From the NCBI GenBank assembly GCA_965214775.1, contig OZ243974.1, positions 2,368,001 through 2,432,000 on the forward strand: a DNA stretch of 64,000 nt, given 5' to 3'. Origin of the DNA: Nitrosopumilus sp. Lineage in GTDB: Archaea > Thermoproteota > Nitrososphaeria > Nitrososphaerales > Nitrosopumilaceae. Numbering within the stretch: the first letter of the stretch is position 1; every line of letters begins with the position of its first letter. Positions 29,288 through 57,007 of this stretch are shown here, piece after piece. Under the pieces are notes generated by a model, which saw nothing but the letters and a program-made list of their open reading frames with translations, was not told the DNA's origin and ran no database searches. Position numbers and translations under genes: made by a program.

Positions 29288-29368
29288 GTACAACTTCAGG
29301 TCCTATTTAAACCGCCTAGGAATCTAGGAAGTATTTGCTTGCCAGTATAAATGGGACCTGAAGTTGTA
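29288..29368. mobile_element. IS66-type MITE, family GTACAACTTCAGG
   Basis: TIR like the IS66 at 49997-52101; 8-bp TSD TGCAAGCT at 29280-29287 and 30116-30123 encloses MITE plus IS110; related copy at 40606-40687. Confidence 0.88.
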
Positions 29369-30114
29369 TCTATGTGTCGTGCTTATAAGGATTCCACGCG
29401 CAACGGTGTTGTGAAGTATGGCTTTGGCTGGGGGTCTCTTCCTGACAATCACAAAATGAAGGTCGGACACTTATCTATACGAGGATCTCCCTCAGTACCA
29501 TTCTTCATCCATTTGTCAGAACCGTTCTGCAGTTATCTATGTGTCGTGCTTATAAGGATTCCACGCGCAACGGTGTTGTGAAGTATGGCTTTGGCTGGGG
29601 GTCTCTTCCTGACAATCACAAAATGAAGGTCGGACACTTATCTATACGAGGATCTCCCTCAGTACCATTCTTCATCCATTTGTCAGAACCGTTCTGCAGT
29701 TACTAAACGAGGATCTCCCTCAACAACATCAACGCAGATTAAAGTTCTAACTGTAATGACAATAATAATGATGATGATGACGTTCGTTTCACACGCATGT
29801 CCCCTATGCACTGATTGAAGGCCATCTATTTCTTTAGCATACGAGGACTCCATGACGCACCTAGTGTTATCCGGAATCTTTGCAAACATCTCTCTTATCT
29901 CGCTGTTCCTGTTCCTTATTTTTGTATTCCTCAGGACCTTGTCGTCCTTGTCCATCACTGCAACCTGGATGGACTTCTTGTGCACGTCCAGACCGACATA
30001 CTGCTGCACCGCCTTTGATTTCACATATATCCTCTTTTTTGCGCTAATCTGTTTGTCTGCATTGCGATTTATCTTGGTACCATCTGAATTTTGTTTTTGA
30101 GACACATATGGTTA
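29367..30114 (-). mobile_element. Internally deleted IS110 derivative with a 167-bp right-end tandem duplication
   Basis: Ends TA-ACCATATGTGTC…GACACATAGA-TA; recombinase deleted after 'MESS'. Confidence 0.9.
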
Positions 30115-31142: not shown

Positions 31143-33332
31143 TCACACCCTAAAATCACGATTCCGGACAACGCCCTCTGTATTGCTATTGTTATTACCT
31201 TCCATGCAGTTTGTGTCGTTTTCGGTTCTGACAAAGTTTTCAAAATTTGATATGTGAAAATCCGACTTGTCATCCTTGGCTAATTTTTGATCAGAGAATC
31301 CAATACAGATCCTTGCTGCACCAACTGAATTACGAGGTTCTTCTGGAAGATACAGACGCTCATAAGCAAGAAGCCACTCTAGGGAATCAACCACCATGTC
31401 ATCAAGATACCCTAACGAGTCATACCCCAATTCGGCAATGCCATCTGCAAATCCTTTGATCGTGTTAGGGGTAGATTGCAGTCTCATGGGAAATCTCCAA
31501 CTCAGGTATGCCTCTACATTTTCCGGGGTTGCTTGCCAATCTCTGTAAGGAAAGCGGGGAATCTGGACGGGTGCCACAAAAACTTTTTTCTCCATGGTGA
31601 TTTTTTTGACAGCTTTCTCCCTTACTAATGCGTCAATTCTGTTTCTGATCATTTGTTCAGAAATGTCTCCCCCGATAAGCAAGGACACAATCTCCTTAAG
31701 ACGCTGTCTGCCGCCGCGAATCGTTCGTAAAATCAAACGTTCAACAACATGTCTCCCAAGTTTTTCAAGAATCGGCGCAACTATTCCGGTCTGTTCTGCA
31801 AGAACAGACATCTGCTCAAAAATCGGAATTGCTATTTCCCGTATCGGATTCATTTTTTCTTGATGGATAATTTCCCGCCATACTTCATCCCAATCAAACT
31901 TGTCATGCTCAAATCTTCCGGATTGATTTAAGGGGACTTGTGACAAGAGCGCCATGTCTTGAATATCTCCCTCTCTACTGGCTACGGCTTTTAGCAAAAA
32001 TACGTATTCGTTTCTCAATACCCCTACACGTAATTTGCCGAATTTAAGATAGTCTGCGGTTTGAATCATTACGTCAGATAATGACAAATCCTTCAACACC
32101 CTTTTTGTGAACAGATCAATTCTGCTTCCATTGGGATGGACAAGTATCTCGTCAGGATATAGACGCAAGTCTTCTTGCGAATATTCGGTTTCGATTATTT
32201 TTTCATACGCTAATTTTTCAGTAAGCACTTTACAAAGAATTTCAAAGTCCGATGGTTTTTCAACTATCAGGTCGCAATCCTTGGTGACTGCCTTTAGCTT
32301 TTTTAATCTCATATTTTCCCCGCCCATAAGAAATATCTGTAAGGGCTCGGCAAGACTGCTTCCTATGTCTTCAAATAGTGACGGTGCAGGTGTCGGTATG
32401 ACATACTGTTCGGGCTTTATCTCGTATAGTTCTGCCTTTGATACAAATTCATTCCATGGGAGAAATAGGCTTTCATTTTTTAATTTTTGTCTTCTAATAT
32501 ATCCTTCAACATCCAACCATGTGGATGATATCCCAAAAGACGATGCAGTTTCCCTTAGCCGCTTGACATCAACCCTGTTTTTATTATGGATATAAAATAC
32601 TGCAGACATGATTAAGCCCATTTTGTCATTGGCCTTGAACGATGCCAATACCGAATGAATGATTATGTCGTGAATGTCCAGGGGCTCATCTTGTTTGACA
32701 TAGTAATCATATGGGGATTCATACATTATTCCATTGTTCGTAAAAACAGAAAAAGCAGTCAGCTCTCCTTCGGTTATTTTTCCTTTTGTAACTTTTCTGA
32801 CAATTTTTTCCTTATCTGCATAGAGTACTTCCGCATCAGACTCGTAGAATCTTTCTCTTTCAGTTCTTAAGATTCTTGCAAAATCGACTAGTTCGGTTTT
32901 AGATGCGTCTATGTGCATTCTTTCAGGTGTTTTACCTGTGTGATTTTCATTCCTGCGGATTTCTTTTCGTATTATTCCAATTGCTTCAAGATCGGAGATT
33001 GCACGATAAACTGTAGATGTTGACAATCCCGTATTGGTTACAATCTCATTAATGGTCAGCGGGTCAATTAGATACGAAAATACAAGTTCATTGGAATCCC
33101 GCAAAAGATTTACCAAATTCCATTTCTGGGATATTTTTTTGAGCAGTATTGTTTTTGCACTTTCCTGTAATGCTATCGTCTTGCCTTCTTTTTTGATATA
33201 CCCGTCTTGAAGCAGTTTTTTTACTACCTCGTTGAATTGACATGTTTTTACTTTACTAATCTTCTTTAATGCTGCAATATCATGTGTGTTGTTGATGATT
33301 GCCTTGACTAAAGATATTGATGTACTATTCAT
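31143..33332 (-). CDS. Multi-domain wHTH plus nucleotidyltransferase (DUF6036-like) fusion
   Basis: HTH 'LTINEIVTNTGLSTSTVYRAISDL'; NTase 'GG…TKDCD', 'LKAVASREGDIQD'; further wHTH and a C-terminal domain. Confidence 0.75.
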   Translation of the reverse strand: MNSTSISLVKAIINNTHDIAALKKISKVKTCQFNEVVKKLLQDGYIKKEGKTIALQESAKTILLKKISQKWNLVNLLRDSNELVFSYLIDPLTINEIVTNTGLSTSTVYRAISDLEAIGIIRKEIRRNENHTGKTPERMHIDASKTELVDFARILRTERERFYESDAEVLYADKEKIVRKVTKGKITEGELTAFSVFTNNGIMYESPYDYYVKQDEPLDIHDIIIHSVLASFKANDKMGLIMSAVFYIHNKNRVDVKRLRETASSFGISSTWLDVEGYIRRQKLKNESLFLPWNEFVSKAELYEIKPEQYVIPTPAPSLFEDIGSSLAEPLQIFLMGGENMRLKKLKAVTKDCDLIVEKPSDFEILCKVLTEKLAYEKIIETEYSQEDLRLYPDEILVHPNGSRIDLFTKRVLKDLSLSDVMIQTADYLKFGKLRVGVLRNEYVFLLKAVASREGDIQDMALLSQVPLNQSGRFEHDKFDWDEVWREIIHQEKMNPIREIAIPIFEQMSVLAEQTGIVAPILEKLGRHVVERLILRTIRGGRQRLKEIVSLLIGGDISEQMIRNRIDALVREKAVKKITMEKKVFVAPVQIPRFPYRDWQATPENVEAYLSWRFPMRLQSTPNTIKGFADGIAELGYDSLGYLDDMVVDSLEWLLAYERLYLPEEPRNSVGAARICIGFSDQKLAKDDKSDFHISNFENFVRTENDTNCMEGNNNSNTEGVVRNRDFRV

Positions 33333-33550
33333 TTAATATCATTAAAACATAATTATATATAACGATTTATGATTTAATGATACTGATATAATAATACAAA
33401 ATAAACAGATGTGTTTGCTTTATCCACTTGAAAGCATTGGGCTGCCCTTCCTCACTTCCTCCTTTCCTACCACCATGTCTCCATATATGGCTGTTCTATC
33501 CCTCATCTCACGTCCAAACATTAGTCTGATGCGACCCACCGTAACCATAT

Positions 33551-34678
33551 GTGTCTCAAAAACAAAATTCAGATGGTGCCAAGATAAATGGCAATGCAAA
33601 CAAACAGATTACCGCAAAAAAGAGGATACATGTGAAATCAAAGACTGTACAAATACAACAACAACAGCAGTATGTCGGCCTGGACGTGCACAAGAATTTC
33701 ATCCAGGTCGCGGTGATGGACAAGGGCGGCAAGATGCTGAGTAACACAAGAGTCGACAACAATGACGACGAGATAAGAAAGATATTTTCAGGGATTCCAA
33801 AGAATGCAAAGTGCGTCATGGAGTCCTCTTCAGTATGGTACGGGCTGTTCAGGTTCATTTCAGACAGTCTCAAAAGGGACGTGATCCTCTCAAACCCGTT
33901 TGAGACCAAGGCCATTGCCACATCAAAGAAAAAGACAGACAAGGTCGACGCGCAGATTCTGGCAGATCTTCTCAGGGGAGGATACATATCTGCATGTTAC
34001 GTTCCCTCCGGCAAGACGGTACAGAACAGGCAGCTGACCAGGCACCGCGCAAAGACGATACAGTCAAGGACCGTACTAAAGAACCAGATACACGCAATAC
34101 TGCTGCAAAACAGGATACAGGTAAATGGGGATCCGTTCTCCAGACCGTGGATCTCAAGGGTGAGAGATCTGGACAACTTTAGGATAAATGACAAATTAAG
34201 CATAATTGACTCTATAAACGACAGAATAGTAGGCATTGACATGCGCATCAAGAGCGCAGTTGCCGACAATCCGGATGCAGTATTACTGCAGACGATTCCC
34301 GGGTTTGGCAGCTACACTGCACTGACCATGGCATCAGAGATAGACGGCGTTGACAGGTTTGCCGACTCACACAAGCTGTGCGCGTATGCCGGAATGGTGC
34401 CGTCTGTGAGAAACTCTGCAGACACCATCCACCATGGAAGGATAACAAAGAGGGGCAGCCCCATGATGAGGTGGCTCCTAGTGGAGTCAGTACACAGCCA
34501 CGTAAGACATGCGCCGTCAGACTCGCCGATATCTGTCTTTTACAAGAGGGTTGCAAAGAAGAGGGGAACGTCCAAGGCCGCAGTGGCTGCCGCATCCAAG
34601 ATGCTGCGCATATCATACTGGATGCTAAAGAAGAGGATGACCTTCAAGCAGTGCATAGGAGATGCGTGTGTGAAATGA
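33551..34678 (+). CDS. IS110 recombinase
   Basis: DEDD RuvC 'GLDVHK', 'MES', 'KTDKVDA'; C-domain 'IPGFG', 'PSVRNSA', 'GRITKRG'. Confidence 0.95.
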   Translation: MSQKQNSDGAKINGNANKQITAKKRIHVKSKTVQIQQQQQYVGLDVHKNFIQVAVMDKGGKMLSNTRVDNNDDEIRKIFSGIPKNAKCVMESSSVWYGLFRFISDSLKRDVILSNPFETKAIATSKKKTDKVDAQILADLLRGGYISACYVPSGKTVQNRQLTRHRAKTIQSRTVLKNQIHAILLQNRIQVNGDPFSRPWISRVRDLDNFRINDKLSIIDSINDRIVGIDMRIKSAVADNPDAVLLQTIPGFGSYTALTMASEIDGVDRFADSHKLCAYAGMVPSVRNSADTIHHGRITKRGSPMMRWLLVESVHSHVRHAPSDSPISVFYKRVAKKRGTSKAAVAAASKMLRISYWMLKKRMTFKQCIGDACVK

Positions 34679-34689
34679 ATGTTGGTATT

Positions 34690-34860
34690 ACCATTACAGT
34701 TAGAACTTTAATCTGCGTTAACCTAGTTGAGGGCGATCCTCGTTTTGTAACTGCAGAATGGTTCTGACAAATGGATGAAGAATGGTGCTGAGGGAGATCC
34801 TCGTATAGATAAGTGTCCGACCTTCATTTTGGAATTGTCAGGAAAGACCCCCAGCCAAAG
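34690..34860 (+). ncRNA. Predicted bridge/seek RNA (target loop ~34712-34757, donor loop ~34775-34828)
   Basis: Two GAGG-N5-CCTC hairpins flanked by matches to the target and the donor junction, each closed by a stem (TCTGC/GCAGA, ATGAAG/CTTCAT); boundaries approximate. Confidence 0.8.
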
Positions 34861-35079
34861 CCATGCCTCACAACACCGTTGCGCGTGGAATCCTTATAAA
34901 CGTGACACATAGATAACTGCAGAATGGTTCTGACAAATGGATGAAGAATGGTGCTGAGGGAGATCCTCGTATAGATAAGTGTCCGACCTTCATTTTGGAA
35001 TTGTCAGGAAAGACCCCCAGCCAAAGCCATGCCTCACAACACCGTTGCGCGTGGAATCCTTATAAACGTGACACATAGA

Positions 35080-35195
35080 TAATAGGTTAGCCCTTGCCTA
35101 GGCAGCAATCAGGCATGAATCTGCCTCTAGTTACGATTTTCATGCCTGAACAGACGGGGGTGTGACTTTAACTCTAGGCAGGGGCTAACCTGTTA
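35080..35195. mobile_element. IS66-type MITE with an IS110 inserted at both termini
   Basis: (G)TAATAGGTTAGCCC…GGGCTAACCTGTTA(C). Confidence 0.88.
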
Positions 35196-36570
35196 TCTAT
35201 GTGTCATGTTTATAAGGATTCCACGCGCAACGGTGTTGTGAGGCATGGCTTTGGCTGGGGGTCTTTCCTGACAATTCCAAAATGAAGGTCGGACATTTAT
35301 CTATACGAGGATCTCCCTCAGCACCATTCTTCATCCATTTATCAGAACCATTCTGCAGTTACAAAACGAGGATCGCCCTCAACTAGGTTAACGCAGATTA
35401 AAGTTCTAACTGTAATGGTAATACCAACATTCATTTCACACACGCATCTCCTATGCACTGCTTGAAGGTCATCCTCTTCTTTAGCATCCAGTATGATATG
35501 CGCAGCATCTTGGATGCGGCAGCCACTGCGGCCTTGGACATTCCCCTCTTCTTTGCAACCCTCTTGTAAAAGACAGATATCGGCGAGTCTGACGGCGCAT
35601 GTCTTACGTGGCTGTGTACTGACTCCACCAGGAGCCACCTCATCATGGGGCTGCCCCTCTTTGTTATCCTTCCATGGTGAATGGTGTCTGCAGAGTTTCT
35701 CACAGACGGCACCATTCCGGCATACGCGCACAGCTTGTGTGAGTCGGCAAACCTGTCAACGCCGTCTATCTCTGATGCCATGGTCAGTGCAGTGTAGCTG
35801 CCAAACCCGGGAATCGTCTGCAGTAAGACTGCATCCGGACTGTCGGCAACCGCGCTCTTGATGCGCATGTCAATGCCTACTATCCTGTCGTTTATGGAGT
35901 CAATTATGCTTAATTTGTCATTTATCCTAAAGTTGTCCAGATCTCTCACCCTTGAGATCCACGGTCTGGAGAACGGATCCCCATTTACCTGTATCCTGTT
36001 TTGCAGCAGTATTGCGTGTATCTGGTTCTTTAGTACGGTCCTTGACTGTATCGTCTTTGCGCGGTGCCTGGTCAGCTGCCTGTTCTGTACAGTCTTGCCG
36101 GAGGGAACGTAGCATGCAGATATGTATCCTCCCCTGAGAAGATCTGCCAGAATCTGCGCGTCGACCTTGTCTGTCTTTTTCTTTGATGTGGCAATGACCT
36201 TGGTCTCAAACGGGTTTGAGAGGATCACGTCCCTTTTGAGACTGTCTGAAATGAACCTGAACAGCCCGTACCATACTGAAGAGGACTCCATGACGCACTT
36301 TGCATTCTTTGGAATCCCTGCAAATATCTTTCTTATCTCGTCGTCATTGTTGTCGACTCTTGTGTTGCTCAGCACCTTGCCGCCCTTGTCCATCACCGCG
36401 ACCTGGATGAAATTCTTGTGCACGTCCAGGCCGACATACTGCTGCTGTTGTTGTTGTATTTGTACAGTCTTTGATTTCACATGTATCCTCTTTTTTGCGG
36501 TAATCTGTTTGTTTGCATTGCCATTTATCTTGGCACCATCTGAATTTTGTTTTTGAGACACATATGGTTA
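35194..36570 (-). mobile_element. IS110 element, second full-length copy (recombinase 35431-36561)
   Basis: Near-identical inverted copy of 33542-34915. Confidence 0.93.
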
Positions 36571-36609
36571 CAGTCCGTTTACACATCATCAAAATCTGCC
36601 AATCTCGAA

Positions 36610-38385
36610 TCAACCTTCTGCGGGGCTAACCTGCACCCACGCGCCGTCCCGGATCTGCCACACTGCATAGTCCGTACGCAGCCTGTCTCCTGCATCGTTA
36701 AACTCGATGTTGCTTCCGCTTGCACCATCGTACTCTTGCGCCACCGAGACGATCCCGTCTGCCACGTCCGGCGCAAAGCCGGTCTGGCCGTCAAGTACTG
36801 CCTCTCCTATCAGTCGCATGGCATCATACGCAAAGAACGCATACACGCTTGGCTGCCTGCCGAGGACCTCGACGAGCCGCGCCTCCACGTCTTCTGTCAC
36901 GTCGCCGTACGGAACGGTGGGCTGGACGGATGTAAACTCCACGGCCTCTGCAAACCGCAGTGCCTCCGCACTGCCTGCCGGTACCGTGTTGGCATCGGCG
37001 CCAAACCATCTGACGCCTGCCAGCACATCATGCTTTGTGGCCTCCTCTAAAAAGTCATAGGTCTCCTCAAAGCCTATAAACAGGACTGCGACCTTGTCTG
37101 CGCCATGGATGCCGACCTGTCCGGACACTGTCTCTGAGAGCATCCAAATGTGTTGATCAAACTGGCCTGATGCGTCATACAGCACAGGCTCTGAGAACAT
37201 AACTGTTCCTTCTCCATTCTCCTCCTCTACGTCTGCCATGTGTCTCTCATCGGACTCGGGTGATGTATCTGCCTCGACAAACGCCATACCTGTGTTGTCA
37301 ATGAGATCAGTAACCCATATGCCGTCCCTTCCTGCGGGAACCACGACCTTTATTCCCTCGATTGCCATCAGCCGGGCAAGCGCCTCGCCGTGGCCGCGGT
37401 GATCAGATATCATGCGCATCAGCGAGTCTCCCGCTGTGGCATAGTCTGTCACGACAGAGCAGCAACTAAAAAGCAGCATGCCGTTCTCATCGGCATAGTC
37501 TATGACATCTCTCTCAAAGATGTCAATTGAGGGGCCAACGACCAGCCGGACTCCCTGCTCCCTTAGCTCTGCCACGCCCTCCAGCTCCCTGCTGCCGTCT
37601 GTACCTGTATCGTAAACTATGACCTCAAGATACCACGGATGGCCGCCTGCCTCCAGCTTTGCGTTAAAGTCGTCGGCTGCCGTTTTTGCTGCATCTGTTA
37701 TGTCCTGGCCGTATCCTGCGGCGCCTCCGCTGATGGGTGCAAGCAGTCCCACTGTAACTGTGTGCATCTCCCAGTTCTGTATGGTCTCATAGGCTGCCAG
37801 ATCATAGCCTATCTCAGAGAGCGTTTCGTACGTGGAGGGCTTTAGACACGTGGGCATTGCAGAGTCCCTCAGAAACGGCTCCCTCGGCGCGTTGCACTGT
37901 ATGGCAGAAAGGAAGACGCCGTCCCTGTACTGCGTTGCCGGCGGGTCGTGTCGTACAGCATACGTGCCGCTGCCAAAGACGTACCCGTCATGCAGGACCA
38001 GCAGCGTGTGCTTGACCTCGTCGCGGCCGGTGGCCGGATTCAGGAACACATAGTATATCCTGGTCTCCCCGTCTGCATCAAGCTCCGCGTTTATCTGCTC
38101 TAGCGTCTTGTCCGGACGTATGCTGTCCAGCGCATTCGTACCAACAAGGGACGGATTGGTCCCGTGTGCCAGCACCAGGCCGTCCCTGCCAAGCACAAAC
38201 GGATAGTGCTCCCTGTCACTTTGCATTGTTATGGCCTCAAGTCCGGACTCTTTGTACGTCTCTATGGCAGAGATGATCTGGGCCCGCGCCGGATCCTGGT
38301 AGGCGTCTTCTGCATATGCAATGCCGCCTGCAGCAGGCATCAATGCCGCAAGTACTGCCAGCGCAACTATCACAGTCTTTTCCAA
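36610..38385 (-). CDS. Secreted Cache-domain plus LivJ-like substrate-binding protein
   Basis: Signal peptide; 'YPFVL…LAHG…NPATGRDEVK…VFGSG'; 'VGLLAPISG', 'AYDA', 'GASG…F…GDR'. Confidence 0.85.
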   Translation of the reverse strand: MEKTVIVALAVLAALMPAAGGIAYAEDAYQDPARAQIISAIETYKESGLEAITMQSDREHYPFVLGRDGLVLAHGTNPSLVGTNALDSIRPDKTLEQINAELDADGETRIYYVFLNPATGRDEVKHTLLVLHDGYVFGSGTYAVRHDPPATQYRDGVFLSAIQCNAPREPFLRDSAMPTCLKPSTYETLSEIGYDLAAYETIQNWEMHTVTVGLLAPISGGAAGYGQDITDAAKTAADDFNAKLEAGGHPWYLEVIVYDTGTDGSRELEGVAELREQGVRLVVGPSIDIFERDVIDYADENGMLLFSCCSVVTDYATAGDSLMRMISDHRGHGEALARLMAIEGIKVVVPAGRDGIWVTDLIDNTGMAFVEADTSPESDERHMADVEEENGEGTVMFSEPVLYDASGQFDQHIWMLSETVSGQVGIHGADKVAVLFIGFEETYDFLEEATKHDVLAGVRWFGADANTVPAGSAEALRFAEAVEFTSVQPTVPYGDVTEDVEARLVEVLGRQPSVYAFFAYDAMRLIGEAVLDGQTGFAPDVADGIVSVAQEYDGASGSNIEFNDAGDRLRTDYAVWQIRDGAWVQVSPAEG

Positions 38386-41555: not shown

Positions 41556-42136
41556 TATCTATGTGTCGTGCTTATAAGGATTCCACGCGTAACGGTGTTG
41601 TGAAGTATGGCTTTGGCTGGGGGTCTCTTCCTGACAATCACAAAATGAAGGTCGGACACTTATCTATACGAGGATCTCCCTCAGTACCATTCTTCATCCA
41701 TTTGTCAGAACCGTTCTGCAGTTACTAAACGAGGATCTCCCTCAACTACATCAACGCAGATTAAAGTTCTAACTGTAATGACAATAATAATAATGATGAT
41801 GACGTTCATTTCACACGCATGTCCACTATGCACTGACTGAAGGCCATCTATTTCTTTAGCATACGAGGACTCCATGACGCACCTGGTGTTATCCGGAATC
41901 TTTGCAAACATCTCTCTTATCTCGCTGTTCCTGTTGCTTATTTTTGTATTCCCCAGGACCTTGCCGTCCTTGTCCATCACCGCGACCTGGATGGACTCCT
42001 TGTGCACGTCCAGGCCGACATACTGCTGCTCCGCCTTTGATTTCACACATATCCTTTTTTTTGCGCTAATCTGTCTGTTTGCATTGCCTTTTATCTTGGT
42101 ACCATCTGAATTTTGTTTTTGAGACACATATGGTTA
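41556..42136 (-). mobile_element. Internally deleted IS110 derivative, second copy
   Basis: Same deletion breakpoint as 29367-30114; inserted at G|TA-CAACATC. Confidence 0.9.
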
Positions 42137-42402: not shown

Positions 42403-42547
42403 AATATATAAAAAACTAGCAGCCAGCTTGCCTATGAATATATAAAAAACTAGCAGCCAGCTTGCCTATGAATATATAAAAAACTAGCAGCCAGCTTGCC
42501 TATGAATATATAAAAAACTGCCAACCAGCTTGCCTATGAATATATAA
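42403..42547 (+). repeat. 4 x 34-bp tandem repeat, each with TATATAAA
   Basis: AATATATAAAAAACTAGCAGCCAGCTTGCCTATG; ends ~25 bp before ATG 42572. Confidence 0.92.
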
Positions 42548-52113: not shown

Positions 52114-55100
52114 GTTTCAATCCTTGTTATGATGGATTAGTCATTACGACTTGTAGGGCGGCGCTAAAACTATCAAAGTCCATAGTTTCAATCCTTGTTA
52201 TGATGGATTAGTCATTACGACTACCTTTTTTCTTAGTATGAATTACTACGTTCACCGTTTCAATCCTTGTTATAATGGATTAGTCATTACGACCGTTTTT
52301 GGATCTGTTTGAAGGTGCATATTACGGGTTTCAATCCTTGTTATGATGGATTAGTCATTACGACGGCTGAACCATGATGTTATGCCTTCACGGTTAGAAG
52401 TTTCAATCCTTGTTATGATGGATTAGTCATTACGACAAAGAGATGGAAGGCAAGGACATACCAGCAATGGAGTTTCAATCCTTGTTATGATGGATTAGTC
52501 ATTACGACTAGCCCAAACCCAAATATCCCCGGAGGCTTTTTTGGTTTCAATCCTTGTTATGATGGATTAGTCATTACGACATTCCGGAGGCAGTTACAGA
52601 TCAGTGGGTAAAAAAGTTTCAATCCTTGTTATGATGGATTAGTCATTACGACAAACTTACAAGGTAACCCATGTGACAACGCATGAAAGTTTCAATCCTT
52701 GTTATGATGGATTAGTCATTACGACCTTCTGGAATTGTTCTAATTCCATTTTGTTGATAGTTTCAATCCTTGTTATGATGGATTAGTCATTACGACGGAA
52801 AAGCTGAAACTATTATCAGAAAAGGATAGACGTTTCAATCCTTGTTATGATGGATTAGTCATTACGACCTAACCTAGACATTTTTGGTGAGGAAATCGAG
52901 ACTGTTTCAATCCTTGTTATGATGGATTAGTCATTACGACTCGATATGACATTGACCACAATTAGGACAGTTATCCAGTTTCAATCCTTGTTATGATGGA
53001 TTAGTCATTACGACATTAGAAAAGAGTTTGAATTTCAAACTGTATTTTCCGTTTCAATCCTTGTTATGATGGATTAGTCATTACGACGTGTTTTTTCATA
53101 GTCGTTATATTCTAGTCTTAAGTTTCAATCCTTGTTATGATGGATTAGTCATTACGACAAACCAATATACCCAGAGGTATCAATCTGGTCTAAGTTTCAA
53201 TCCTTGTTATGATGGATTAGTCATTACGACATGCTCTGCAAATTTGCAGAGTTTTGCAACAACGGGTTTCAATCCTTGTTATGATGGATTAGTCATTACG
53301 ACTATCAAACAGTAAAAGCAAATAGGGCCATTTTGCTGTTTCAATCCTTGTTATGATGGATTAGTCATTACGACTTCGATCTGTGCTTTGCATTTCTCAA
53401 GTTGTTTTCCCAGTTTCAATCCTTGTTATGATGGATTAGTCATTACGACTGTTTTATGGTATTAAAATAGGCTGGCGGTTCCGCCGTTTCAATCCTTGTT
53501 ATGATGGATTAGTCATTACGACTGATTTTTGTTTTTTGAATCCGCCCTACTCACATTGTTTCAATCCTTGTTATGATGGATTAGTCATTACGACCTAACC
53601 ATAGACAACAACACGGACACGGCCCATCCGTTTCAATCCTTGTTATGATGGATTAGTCATTACGACCCGATAAGATTCAGACTTTTCAACTTGATGCTGA
53701 GGTTTCAATCCTTGTTATGATGGATTAGTCATTACGACTCGATGCAGCTCCTCGGCCTCTTGCTTTGTTGAGCGGTTTCAATCCTTGTTATGATGGATTA
53801 GTCATTACGACCAGCATTTCGGTTTTTCCAGTCCCCGCCGGGCCGCGTTTCAATCCTTGTTATGATGGATTAGTCATTACGACAATGGACACGCCGCAAC
53901 ATTGAAGGCTTTCTTGACTTGTTTCAATCCTTGTTATGATGGATTAGTCATTACGACAAGTCATCAGAATCGTGGCCTTTGGACTGGGAATGTTTCAATC
54001 CTTGTTATGATGGATTAGTCATTACGACTCACTTAGCATTCGGTGTATGGTTCTTAGACTAACTTTGGTTTCAATCCTTGTTATGATGGATTAGTCATTA
54101 CGACTGGCTTGTGGCCATATTCCTTGGTTAATGCATGAAAAGTTTCAATCCTTGTTATGATGGATTAGTCATTACGACCAGCCAAAAAAGAAGAATCTGA
54201 ATAATGCCCGAGCGTTTCAATCCTTGTTATGATGGATTAGTCATTACGACTTGCTCATGTCTAGTTATTCTCATGTACGTTATAGTTTCAATCCTTGTTA
54301 TGATGGATTAGTCATTACGACCGTTGCAATCCGGAAATATGACTTTGCCGAAATTGAGTTTCAATCCTTGTTATGATGGATTAGTCATTACGACGGTACA
54401 ACACTGTCTTCAATGTCGGGTATCGTATCGTTTCAATCCTTGTTATGATGGATTAGTCATTACGACATTAAATACCTGAAATGCAAACAATGTTCCTTGT
54501 AAAGTTTCAATCCTTGTTATGATGGATTAGTCATTACGACTGCTTTTTTCTGCTATTTCTTTTAGCAGTGTTCTTCGTTTCAATCCTTGTTATGATGGAT
54601 TAGTCATTACGACCTTTGACACAGACGCCGAGATCGTACAAGAAGTAAAGTTTCAATCCTTGTTATGATGGATTAGTCATTACGACTCCAGTTCTTCTTG
54701 TGAAGGGTTGAACATTTTTGGTTTCAATCCTTGTTATGATGGATTAGTCATTACGACGGGGATGGACATGACGGCGACCTGACCGTATCGGGTTTCAATC
54801 CTTGTTATGATGGATTAGTCATTACGACGGGAACGGAAGCGCAACGATGCCGAGCTGTATTTCCCGTTTCAATCCTTGTTATGATGGATTAGTCATTACG
54901 ACTCAAACTATCTGAAGAAAACAATTCCGTACAAGATTGTTTCAATCCTTGTTATGATGGATTAGTCATTACGACATTCGTTGGTCACGATATACGTTTA
55001 CTAGTCGTTCGTTTCAATCCTTGTTATGATGGATTAGTCATTACGACTCACTGATATTGTAACACATGTGTTACGTGACAAGTTTCAATCCTTGTTATGA

Positions 55101-57007
55101 TGGATTAGTCATTACGACCTAGCTGATACTGTGATAATGCAGTCGGGTTCGGTTTCAATCCTTGTTATGATGGATTAGTCATTACGACTCAAAAAGCACG
55201 GCTTTGCAGTCGACCCATGGCTGTTTCAATCCTTGTTATGATGGATTAGTCATTACGACCGAACAAATCCTTTAGTTCCGCTATCTTGGGATCAGTTTCA
55301 ATCCTTGTTATGATGGATTAGTCATTACGACAGAAAACTAGAAGAAGCCGTCGAGAACTTGAACAAGTTTCAATCCTTGTTATGATGGATTAGTCATTAC
55401 GACAAGAAAGATACAGTTTGATCTTCAAATGCGACTTGTTTCAATCCTTGTTATGATGGATTAGTCATTACGACATTACATCTATATACATAGATTTTTT
55501 ACAGCCCTCAGTTTCAATCCTTGTTATGATGGATTAGTCATTACGACCTCTTTTTTTGACTTTTTTGACTTTTTTTGATCGAGTTTCAATCCTTGTTATG
55601 ATGGATTAGTCATTACGACCGTCAATGAATTTCTGCGGGAGGTTTGCCGCCTGGGGTTTCAATCCTTGTTATGATGGATTAGTCATTACGACTCTGTATG
55701 AGCAGGGTACGGAAAACACCACGGTAGTTTCAATCCTTGTTATGATGGATTAGTCATTACGACCAACAACAACTAAGACAGCTAGACCCTGCCACCTTGT
55801 TTCAATCCTTGTTATGATGGATTAGTCATTACGACGGTCTCTAGTGCATTTACAATTTGGGTGCGTGTCGTTTCAATCCTTGTTATGATGGATTAGTCAT
55901 TACGACTGTTGTTTTAGCGTGCGTTTGGCCCATTGTGTTTGGTTTCAATCCTTGTTATGATGGATTAGTCATTACGACGTACGTGCAATACTGCTCAGAT
56001 TGCTGCGGGTCGTTTCAATCCTTGTTATGATGGATTAGTCATTACGACAAAGGCAGAAACGACACAACGTCTGTATGATATCTGGTTTCAATCCTTGTTA
56101 TGATGGATTAGTCATTACGACAGGATTATAGGGATGCTTTGCTGGATAGGGTAAAAGTTTCAATCCTTGTTATGATGGATTAGTCATTACGACTTTGCCG
56201 TTGACGTACCCCAACGCTTTCAAAATGTTTCAATCCTTGTTATGATGGATTAGTCATTACGACTTTTTGTTGTTGTGTCAATGGTTATACCGTGCCAGTT
56301 TCAATCCTTGTTATGATGGATTAGTCATTACGACAATACGGCCAGGGAGAAGTCAATTATGGCGAGGTGTTTCAATCCTTGTTATGATGGATTAGTCATT
56401 ACGACAGGGCAACAATATCAATCCAACCAAGGGTCAGCGGTTTCAATCCTTGTTATGATGGATTAGTCATTACGACCCAAAAATAGTTTCAATCCTTGGG
56501 AGATTAGTCAAAATTCAATCGTTTCCGCGAGGTGTTTCAATCCTTGTTATGATGGATTAGTCATTACGACTGGATCTCAATTTCAATTCATGGGTCATAG
56601 TTTCAATCCTTGTTATGATGGATTAGTCATTACGACTATAAAAATCGTTTTCCATGATCACCAGGTGTTTCAATCCTTGTTATGATGGATTAGTCATTAC
56701 GACTCATCGGCTCTTCCTGGATTTTATAATCATCAATGGTTTCAATCCTTGTTATGATGGATTAGTCATTACGACTGACTCTGAAACGGGCAGAGATCAA
56801 GTTTCCAGACGTCCAAATGTGGAGGGTTTCAATCCTTGTTATGATGGATTAGTCATTACGACGAACCAGGCGACAACTTTTATCCCGTCATACAATGGTT
56901 TCAATCCTTGTTATGATGGATTAGTCATTACGACAGATGACTTCAACAAATCTGCGGCTTTGAATCATACGTTTCAATCCTTGTTATGATGGATTAGTCA
57001 TTACGAC
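52114..57007 (-). CRISPR. CRISPR array, about 68 repeats of 37 bp (GTCGTAATGACTAATCCATCATAACAAGGATTGAAAC)
   Basis: Identical repeats apart from one SNP at ~52274; spacers mostly 33-38 bp; ATTGAAAC 3' end implies minus-strand transcription. Confidence 0.99.

Follow-up and report, generated by a model that had tools for sequence, protein, structure and literature searches.

The question raised by this locus is why a transposable element carries a perfect second copy of its own right end, and why the duplicated piece begins inside the DNA encoding one of the element's own guides. The window is the whole analysed stretch of 64,000 nucleotides from Nitrosopumilus sp. (GenBank assembly GCA_965214775.1, contig OZ243974.1, positions 2,368,001 to 2,432,000, forward strand). 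The element, judged from its sequence, is an IS1111-type member of the IS110 family of insertion sequences (IS), and its copies in the window are named A to D. In copies A and C a right-end module is duplicated in tandem, beginning at the TA dinucleotide that closes the left target guide (LTG). It appears reasonably probable that the recombinase of the element crosses over at this core TA, with the right junction as one partner and, as the other, a stretch of the element's own guide DNA that mimics a half-site. The copies, the module and a palindromic miniature inverted-repeat transposable element (MITE) serving as target are located in the window as follows.

33542..35081, plus strand: copy A, full-length IS1111-type element with duplicated module; TA at 33542-43 and 35080-81 (BLAST, end alignments)
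33551..34678, plus strand: transposase/recombinase open reading frame (ORF), 375 amino acids as listed (ORF list, Pfam)
34748..34749, plus strand: internal TA (site S), proposed crossover point; last two bases of the LTG and start of the duplication
34750..34915, plus strand: module copy 1, 166 bp (sequence, Tandem Repeats Finder)
34916..35081, plus strand: module copy 2, 166 bp, identical to copy 1, ending in the right end and TA
34939-34984, plus strand: second donor loop, inside module copy 2
35082..35191, no strand: palindromic MITE, 110 bp, termini TA-A[T/C]AGGTTAGCCC (sequence; empty sites e1-e7)
35192..36570, minus strand: copy B, full-length, single module; LTG TA at 35360-35361
29367..30114, minus strand: copy C, internally deleted non-autonomous derivative, 167-bp module duplicated
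41556..42136, minus strand: copy D, same non-autonomous type as C, single module

Tandem Repeats Finder reported perfect two-copy arrays at window 34748-35082, with a period of 166, and at 29367-29702, with a period of 167, each with 2.0 copies and 100% matches; the self-matches obtained by BLAST of the element against the window agreed with both. Direct reading of copy A gave the junctions ...CGTTTTG-TA-[ACTGCAG...GACACATAGA-TA]-[ACTGCAG...GACACATAGA-TA]-ATAGGTTAGCC, in lower-case notation cgttttg-TA-actgcag...gacacataga-TA-actgcag...gacacataga-TA-ataggttagcc, with TA at 34748-49, 34914-15 and 35080-81. In copy C, on the minus strand, TA was located at 29367-68, 29534-35 and 29701-02. The coordinates of both duplications and of their TA cores, given in an initial annotation of this DNA, were thus confirmed by the two programs and by direct reading. 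The annotation had also described the second copy as sequence-divergent, and the module of C is indeed ~94% identical to that of A; copy C is not a full element, its left ~290 bp being fused to its right ~300 bp. The duplicated unit begins 2 nt ahead of the 3' strand of the target-loop stem and comprises this strand, the whole donor-binding loop, the subterminal inverted repeat and the right end with its TA, in agreement with the earlier description of an extra donor-loop module. Copies B and D, with a single module, represent unduplicated controls within the window.

A multi-copy repeat may be mis-assembled into tandem units, and assemblers are known to produce perfect tandem repeats in error; some 20 module copies are present in the genome. 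An assembly artefact is nevertheless extremely unlikely, as the same structure was found at three loci with different unit sequences, and a matching deletion and three solo modules exist. Among the public sequencing runs, compared as contigs of DNA or unknown kind, X9 contained a 56-nt contig identical to window 34888-34943 without mismatch, at a depth of 340 and with 28 letters on each side of the junction. This exact fit lends weak support to the reality of the junction in copy A: a contig was counted as junction-spanning from 31 letters on each side, pieces of X9 and X10 fall below this bar, and the source of the assembly itself may be among these runs, so that their independence is uncertain. 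Junctions of the type of F1, a 112-bp duplication elsewhere in the genome, were present in X9 (joint 34913 to 34970, depth 500) and, with a loose end of 12 letters, in X10. Among the pieces listed for runs X1 and X12 no duplication junction was found; no listed contig spans the whole compared stretch, and the uncovered parts are uninformative.

The assignment to the IS1111 group was based on the domains of the recombinase, the downstream non-coding region, the subterminal repeat and the TA junctions, which match the published group features (PMC11208160, PMC11187229; statements on the cited papers refer here and below to the available parts of their texts). The ORF contains DEDD_Tnp_IS110 (PF01548, E 2.7e-24, 86.2 bits, cut-off 29) and Transposase_20 (PF02371, E 6.9e-22, 78.1 bits, cut-off 21.3). 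Few bases precede the ORF as listed and the right end is longer than the left end; the non-coding DNA after the stop at 34678 extends over ~400 bp in copy A and ~240 bp in single-module copies. A subterminal inverted repeat of 7 bp (ATGTGTC/GACACAT), within the 7-17 bp range of the IS1111 group, is present at the left (TA-ACCAT-ATGTGTC) and right (GACACAT-AGA-TA) ends. Both junctions of the element show TA and no further target duplication, and empty sites read G-TA-(MITE terminus). In the 3' non-coding region the following guide elements of copy A were assigned, including the right target guide (RTG) and the left and right donor guides (LDG, RDG).

34712..34757, plus strand: target-binding loop DNA, basal stem TCTGCG/CTGCAGA (RNAalifold, guide/flank co-variation)
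34718-34728, plus strand: RTG, target-loop 5' strand TTAACCTAGTT
34729-34741, plus strand: target-loop hairpin GAGGGCGATCCTC
34743-34747, core TA at 34748-34749, plus strand: LTG, target-loop 3' strand G-TTTTG-TA
34773..34818, plus strand: donor-binding loop copy 1, stem GGATG/TGTCC (sequence, RNAalifold)
34782-34786, plus strand: RDG ATGGT, reverse complement of the left end ACCAT
34790-34802, plus strand: donor-loop hairpin
34803-34805, plus strand: donor-loop G-TA, the site type used by the F1 duplication
34804-34811, plus strand: LDG TATAGA-TA, to be compared with the right end CATAGA-TA (ATAGA-TA matches)

The 3' non-coding region consists of two units, each with a 5' strand, a GAGGGNGATCCTC hairpin and a 3' strand ending in TA. 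In each loop, the 5' strand is the reverse complement of the right half-site and the 3' strand presents the left half-site together with the TA core. RNAalifold yielded a consensus of two internal-loop modules with 20 pairs, 4 of them with compensatory changes; the alignment was a small sample of 8 sequences, two from this genome and six from relatives, and the covariation support is accordingly modest. One module has the basal stem CUGCG/CUGCAG, the other the stem GGAUG/UGUCC, and both enclose an inner hairpin. The region is therefore predicted to encode a two-loop bridge RNA or seekRNA downstream of the gene for the transposase. The single-sequence fold of the 249-nt 3' region had a z of -1.68, a value that by itself says little, and Rfam contained no family at gathering score and, in a scan of 33300-36800 with E up to 1, no match in the guide region. 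Two sub-threshold Rfam matches, mir-980 and a viral pseudoknot, were located on the palindromic MITE and rejected; the mir-980 match is a spurious one to a hairpin-like fold.

The two strands of the target loop were assigned by comparison with the flanking DNA. The RTG has the form TT-NNNN-TAG. In five variants, its variable block of 4 nt corresponds to a right-flank block of reverse-complementary sequence: AACC with GGTT in the full-length copies (context TA-A(T/C)A-GGTT-AG), GATG with CATC in the deletion derivative M1 (TA-CAA-CATC-AG), AAAC with GTTT in M2c, a copy of the deletion derivative M2 (TA-CGA-GTTT-AC), GACC with GGTC in M2b, and ATCC with GGAT in the relative L028/L094. Since the variable block tracks the right flank, the 5' strand is the right target guide. 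The 3' strand reads G-TTTTG-TA or G-TTTAG-TA in left-flank sense. At the equivalent position, it matches the left flank in five relatives that inserted into unique DNA, AGAA-TA (L030), CATC-TA (L032), AAAAA-TA (L033), TCAC-TA (L038) and ACGCA-TA (L042), and hence is the left target guide. The identification of the internal TTT(T/A)G-TA-ACTGCAG as DNA encoding the left target guide, first made in the initial annotation, is upheld by both lines of evidence. In IS1111 seekRNAs the match to the top strand lies 5' of the match to the bottom strand (PMC11187229), and the core is included in the left guide of IS621 (PMC11208160).

Both termini of the 110-bp MITE are occupied: copies A and B lie there tail to tail, with opposite orientations. 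Dozens of empty termini in the genome read (variable)-G-TA-(MITE). At least four MITE families were distinguished by their termini following G-TA-: A(C/T)AGGTTAGCCCCTGCCTAG, CGAGTTTACCCC, ACAGGTCGGGCTCTGGAAGTTCAG and CAACATCAGGTCC (e.g., window 2450, corresponding to genome 2370450). Each family serves a separate sub-lineage of the element as target, and it is in the 4-nt RTG block that these sub-lineages differ. This documents an archaeal IS1111 lineage in which changes in 4 nt of a guide redirect the sub-lineages from one MITE family to another, in each case to the terminus.

The comparison was extended to the genome (2.83 Mb, one contig), which contains six full-length copies (one interrupted), seven copies of M1, three copies of M2, and three solo right-end modules plus assorted fragments. 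A motif count over the whole genome revealed 16 target-loop hairpins and 21 donor-loop hairpins; the excess of five donor loops is fully explained by three duplications and three solo modules minus one deletion. Besides copies A and C, these rearrangements and the F1 duplication are located at the following genome positions.

1166944-1167279: M1b, third duplication at the LTG TA
about 1197660-1197639: M2c, copy without module (deletion)
69302-69470, 114827-114995 and 2249427-2249597: solo modules, all beginning G-TA-ACTGC(A/G)G
634160/634049: F1, 112-bp duplication, internal site CTCG-TA-TAGATAA

At the LTG TA, 3 of the 16 copies bearing a target loop have a duplication and one has the matching deletion. 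In A, C and M1b the right end with its TA is joined to ACTGCAG, the sequence straight after the TA of the LTG. M2c reads ...GATCCTCG-TTTTG-TA-CGAATTTACCCC, thus the guide TA is joined directly to a MITE terminus, and this terminus, CGAATTTACCCC, is exactly of the type specified by the RTG of M2c. Of the three solo modules, two have a normal right junction where they meet a MITE terminus, and the right end of the third (114827-114995) is degenerate. Both units within each duplication are identical and share copy-specific variants: the combination of variants in the units of A was found in no other copy, and both units of C have G in one column where all other M1 copies, including both units of M1b, have A. 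Identical units with copy-specific variants indicate that the partner in the exchange was the same copy, on the sister chromosome or on the same molecule. From these sequences, the duplications of A and of the M1 lineage are certainly separate events, and those of C and M1b probably so.

The use of one TA by at least four separate rearrangements, the duplications A, C and M1b and the deletion M2c, is difficult to attribute to coincidence. A single-module element contains 59 TA dinucleotides, and 22 fall within its last 400 bp. For breakpoints restricted to the TAs of these 400 bp and events assumed independent, the chance of three more events on the TA of the first is (1/22)^3, ~1e-4. That three duplications, one deletion and three solo modules all involve the same TA speaks for the recombinase of the element rather than for chance. 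An origin without the recombinase, by replication slippage or unequal crossing-over at short direct repeats, is very unlikely. The junctions do share flanking bases, TA, TAA or TAAC, and tandem duplications with few shared boundary bases are common products of slippage; TA-bounded duplications also exist at other places in relatives. A microhomology of 2-3 bp, however, does not explain why the same TA among 22 served at least four rearrangements in sequence-divergent copies, why all junctions coincide with the core dinucleotide of the element and why one partner is always a true element junction.

How could a recombinase act on the DNA of its own guide? Excision in this family recombines a left-half junction (left target-core-left end) with a right-half junction (right end-core-right target) (PMC13626964). 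The DNA encoding the LTG, TTTTG-TA or TTTAG-TA, is vulnerable in this respect because it is a perfect copy of what the LTG recognises. The guide site is a perfect mimic of left target and core, and the next two bases, AC, are those with which the left end begins; the site is located only 166 bp upstream of the right junction (right end-TA-target). We propose that the recombinase would occasionally pair the right junction, containing the left-donor half-site, with the guide-encoding half-site and cross over at TA. The products would be right end-TA-ACTGCAG, as a duplication junction or a 166-bp circle, and TTTTG-TA-target, as a deletion; both types of product are present in the genome. After an exchange between sister copies, one product would carry the module in tandem (A, C, M1b) and the other would have lost it (M2c). 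Within one molecule, a deletion and a 166-bp circle would result, and the circle could re-integrate. Recombination of the left junction with the guide site would leave a solo module. A reciprocal crossover at TA thus accounts for duplication and deletion together. We infer the recombinase as the agent, and the route, unequal exchange or minicircle, from breakpoints which are themselves exact and recurrent and were read, like the anatomy and the guide assignments, directly from the loci.

The initial annotation had proposed another route to the same end sequence: the element, taken here as a circular copy, integrates into the guide site of a resident copy, and homologous recombination, acting between the two left parts, then collapses the nested pair to leave an extra module. 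The junction of the right end with TA and the right side of the site would be an insertion product in this case, and the F1 site, G-TA-TAGATAAA, resembles a full target, with 6/8 matches to the reverse complement of the RTG, one base out of register. The genome contains no intermediates of this kind, with 0 LTG-TA-left end and 0 right end-TA-left end junctions. Two steps would be needed per locus, at three or four loci; in view of the copy-specific variants in both units, the circle that invades would have to stem from that same copy; and the deletion product TTTTG-TA-target cannot be obtained. We regard this route as possible in principle but improbable.

The solo modules suggest a further possibility, a small hitch-hiking mobile unit comparable to MITEPpu9 (ssr9) of ISPpu9, of which a minicircle re-inserts at empty targets or beside a resident right end, the right target half being still intact there. 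Two of the three solo modules at MITE termini with normal right junction fit this explanation, and an occupied site retains most target information, the left flanks being unread in this lineage. ISPpu9 makes sub-element minicircles, and ssr9 is in tandem in some strains (PMC12288879). On the other hand, the left edge of the module shares only AC with the true left end (ACTGC versus ACCAT), and a right donor guide matching ACTGC is present in 0/21 donor loops. The module, with donor loop and right end, is an integral part of the element and not a passenger. If occupied sites were good targets, full-length tandem dimers would be expected, and no right end-TA-left end junction exists. Excision at the TA of the guide DNA would still be required, so that this explanation overlaps with the recombinase crossover. 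As a distinct explanation we consider it quite improbable.

Several observations weigh against the proposed crossover at the guide DNA. The natural left flanks in this genome share only G-TA with the LTG, since in all sub-lineages insertion takes place right at the end of a MITE; LTG pairing may for this reason contribute little here, and the site may work simply as G-TA in proximity to the right junction. Its right half, ACTGCAG, matches the expected right target at ~4/9 positions for the F type and 1/9 for the M1 type. Synapsis in cis of sites 166 bp apart is sterically awkward, and the read contigs cannot separate a minicircle from a tandem junction. The duplications of C and M1b could share one ancestral event and have been homogenised by gene conversion. 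Other breakpoints were also found. F1 breaks at the G-TA that begins the donor-guide DNA, not at the LTG TA, and only TA is shared; a break of F1 at the core TA of the donor guide with 8 bp of homology was considered and ruled out. In a relative, L036:3729-3838 is a right-end duplication (51 bp x2.2) that is bounded by TA and located outside any guide. Its internal site, TGCCA-TA-CATGTCGG, resembles the right target (TA-CATGT compared with TA-CTTGT; right target TA-CTTGTTC). Two more relatives, L033:2304-2412 (53 bp) and L058:2253-2457 (101 bp), have perfect tandem duplications of the left flank that abut the left end, with TA at every junction, as a mirror image of the right-end duplications. 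Breakpoints away from the LTG TA had been named in the initial annotation as evidence against self-targeting: F1 and L036 are of this kind, while A, C, M1b and M2c all used the LTG TA.

As these other TA sites (F1, L036, L033, L058) were also used, the mechanism may be better worded as a general rule: a true junction crosses with a nearby half-site mimic at the core. Under this rule, no mimic in this genome would be better or closer than the DNA of the guide itself.

In relatives, the duplication at the guide was sought by several searches. The DNA of the 3' non-coding region had weak matches in only 2 other genomes among 40 relatives, and no duplication at the LTG TA was found in these 2 genomes or in three further genomes reached through loci. 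A metagenome scan for the duplication junction with a 20-nt IUPAC pattern yielded 2 matches, both to unrelated sequences and attributable to chance. Tandem Repeats Finder reported 11 rows with a period of at least 40 for 63 related loci; close inspection covered the rows outside L028, L039, L040, L072 and L079. The repeat in L047 is a coding repeat, that in L038 looks unrelated to the element, and both were rejected as element duplications. The target-loop hairpin of L036 looks damaged. In some relatives (L034/L035/L055) the donor-loop hairpin has a short internal duplication, GAGGGATTGCCTCtgtgATTGCCTC. A distant relative, a record from Methanocellaceae with 28% identity (L090:3201-3780), contains a 288-bp x2 duplication (281/288 identical) that takes in the 3' end of its transposase gene together with the non-coding DNA behind it.

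The element shares with the seekRNA elements ISEc11, ISKpn4 and ISPa11 a DEDD and Transposase_20 recombinase, a downstream non-coding region, subterminal inverted repeats, the absence of a target duplication beyond the core, the position of the top-strand match 5' of the bottom-strand match in the RNA, and a repeated sequence as target (PMC11187229). It differs from them in being archaeal, with several sub-lineages aimed at the termini of different MITE families, in reading the left flank only to G-TA, and in its recurrent breaks at guide-encoding DNA. A rearrangement boundary in guide DNA was not found described in the available text of PMC11187229, where 'tandem' occurs 0 times in the main text. 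IS621 likewise has two internal loops, each with a left and a right guide (PMC11208160, PMC13626964); its left guide, core included, pairs with the bottom strand and its right guide with the top strand (PMC11208160), and its excision recombines left-half and right-half junctions (PMC13626964). In contrast to IS621, the RNA of the present element is located at the 3' end, the order of the guides is reversed and the core is TA instead of CT; the element is known from its sequence alone. IS4321 and IS5075 resemble it as IS1111-group elements that enter the terminal repeat of a different transposon at a constant position, whereas the targets here are the termini of several small archaeal MITE families. 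We know of no self-rearrangement of IS4321/IS5075.

In ISPpu9, a right-hand sub-module occurs attached, alone, or in tandem in some strains, crossovers coincide with the core dinucleotide and the sub-element minicircles are transposase-dependent (PMC12288879). This module, however, is a dispensable passenger between copies of both IS ends (A'/B' boxes), whereas the module described here carries the donor loop and the only right end of the element, and its left edge is guide-encoding DNA. A passenger of the MITEPpu9 type, flanked by both IS ends and dispensable, is thus not recognisable here, the left edge having just AC in common with an element end. A recent preprint on IS110 loci (bioRxiv 10.64898/2026.08.14.744561) reported, in its available text, that half-matches can start recombination, that tandem non-coding units retain a match to the left donor alone, and that a terminal boundary is used again by partial circles while internal endpoints recur; what is recognised at the other boundaries is 'yet to be defined'. 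The 166/167-bp units, adjacent on the same strand and 100% identical, fall within the definition of tandem expansion used there (at least 50 bp, at least 95% identity, adjacent, same strand). Their boundaries also keep the left-donor match only: the units end in right end and TA and start with ACTGC, unlike the right donor ACCAT. In distinction to the loci of the preprint, the other boundary is here the LTG-encoding DNA, or lies within donor-guide DNA (F1), and a matching deletion and solo modules are present in the same genome. The terms 'guide-encoding', 'IS1111' and 'archaea' have 0 occurrences each in the main text of the preprint.

Guide-encoding DNA as a rearrangement boundary was not found in the available parts of the literature on IS110, IS1111, bridge RNA and seekRNA, the preprint being covered by its main text. 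The boundary in guide DNA thus appears to be new, whereas tandem non-coding units at IS110 loci were already known from the 2026 preprint. Already in print, as far as the available texts extend, are IS110 tandem units, initiation by half-matches, and the sub-element circles and tandem ssr9 of ISPpu9 (PMC12288879).

We suggest, as a tentative generalisation that may well not hold, that guide-encoding DNA is an intrinsic self-target in elements with RNA-guided recombinases, whose own ends recombine with their own guide DNA. If so, the second boundary of the tandem units and partial circles found at IS110/IS1111 loci, so far without a definition, would be identified, and the element would be split exactly between target and donor loop, a built-in route for the shuffling of modules between elements. 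Guide DNA acting as a half-site would mean that the starting points of partial circles and tandem units follow a concrete rule that can be put to the test. The guide-DNA breakpoints bear on the question of how natural elements excise, expand and diversify. Bridge RNA and seekRNA recombinases are under development as programmable tools for genome writing. Wherever an engineered bridge RNA is encoded, on a plasmid or at a locus, the DNA includes perfect mimics of the left half of each programmed site, and on the self-target reading such DNA constructs are predicted to be off-target substrates.

Other observations concern the remaining copies and the neighbourhood. The full-length copy F2 (genome 1533376-1535918) is interrupted by ~1.16 kb at residue ~310 of the transposase; its right guide is mutated (AAAC), and its right end reads ...ATAGA-TC instead of TA. 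At genome positions 548985, 808483 and 1299347, the first ~68 bp of the left end are common to another element type and continue with CGCTATATGAAATCTTATCTG; at 549256, after this shared ~68-bp left end, a transposase of only ~32% identity follows. Just past the left end of copy D, Tandem Repeats Finder located a 34-bp unit x4.3 with 97% identity (window 42403-42547). A long CRISPR-like array extends over window 52185-56776, with a 37-nt repeat, GTTTCAATCCTTGTTATGATGGATTAGTCATTACGAC, at a spacing of ~71-73 bp (Tandem Repeats Finder).

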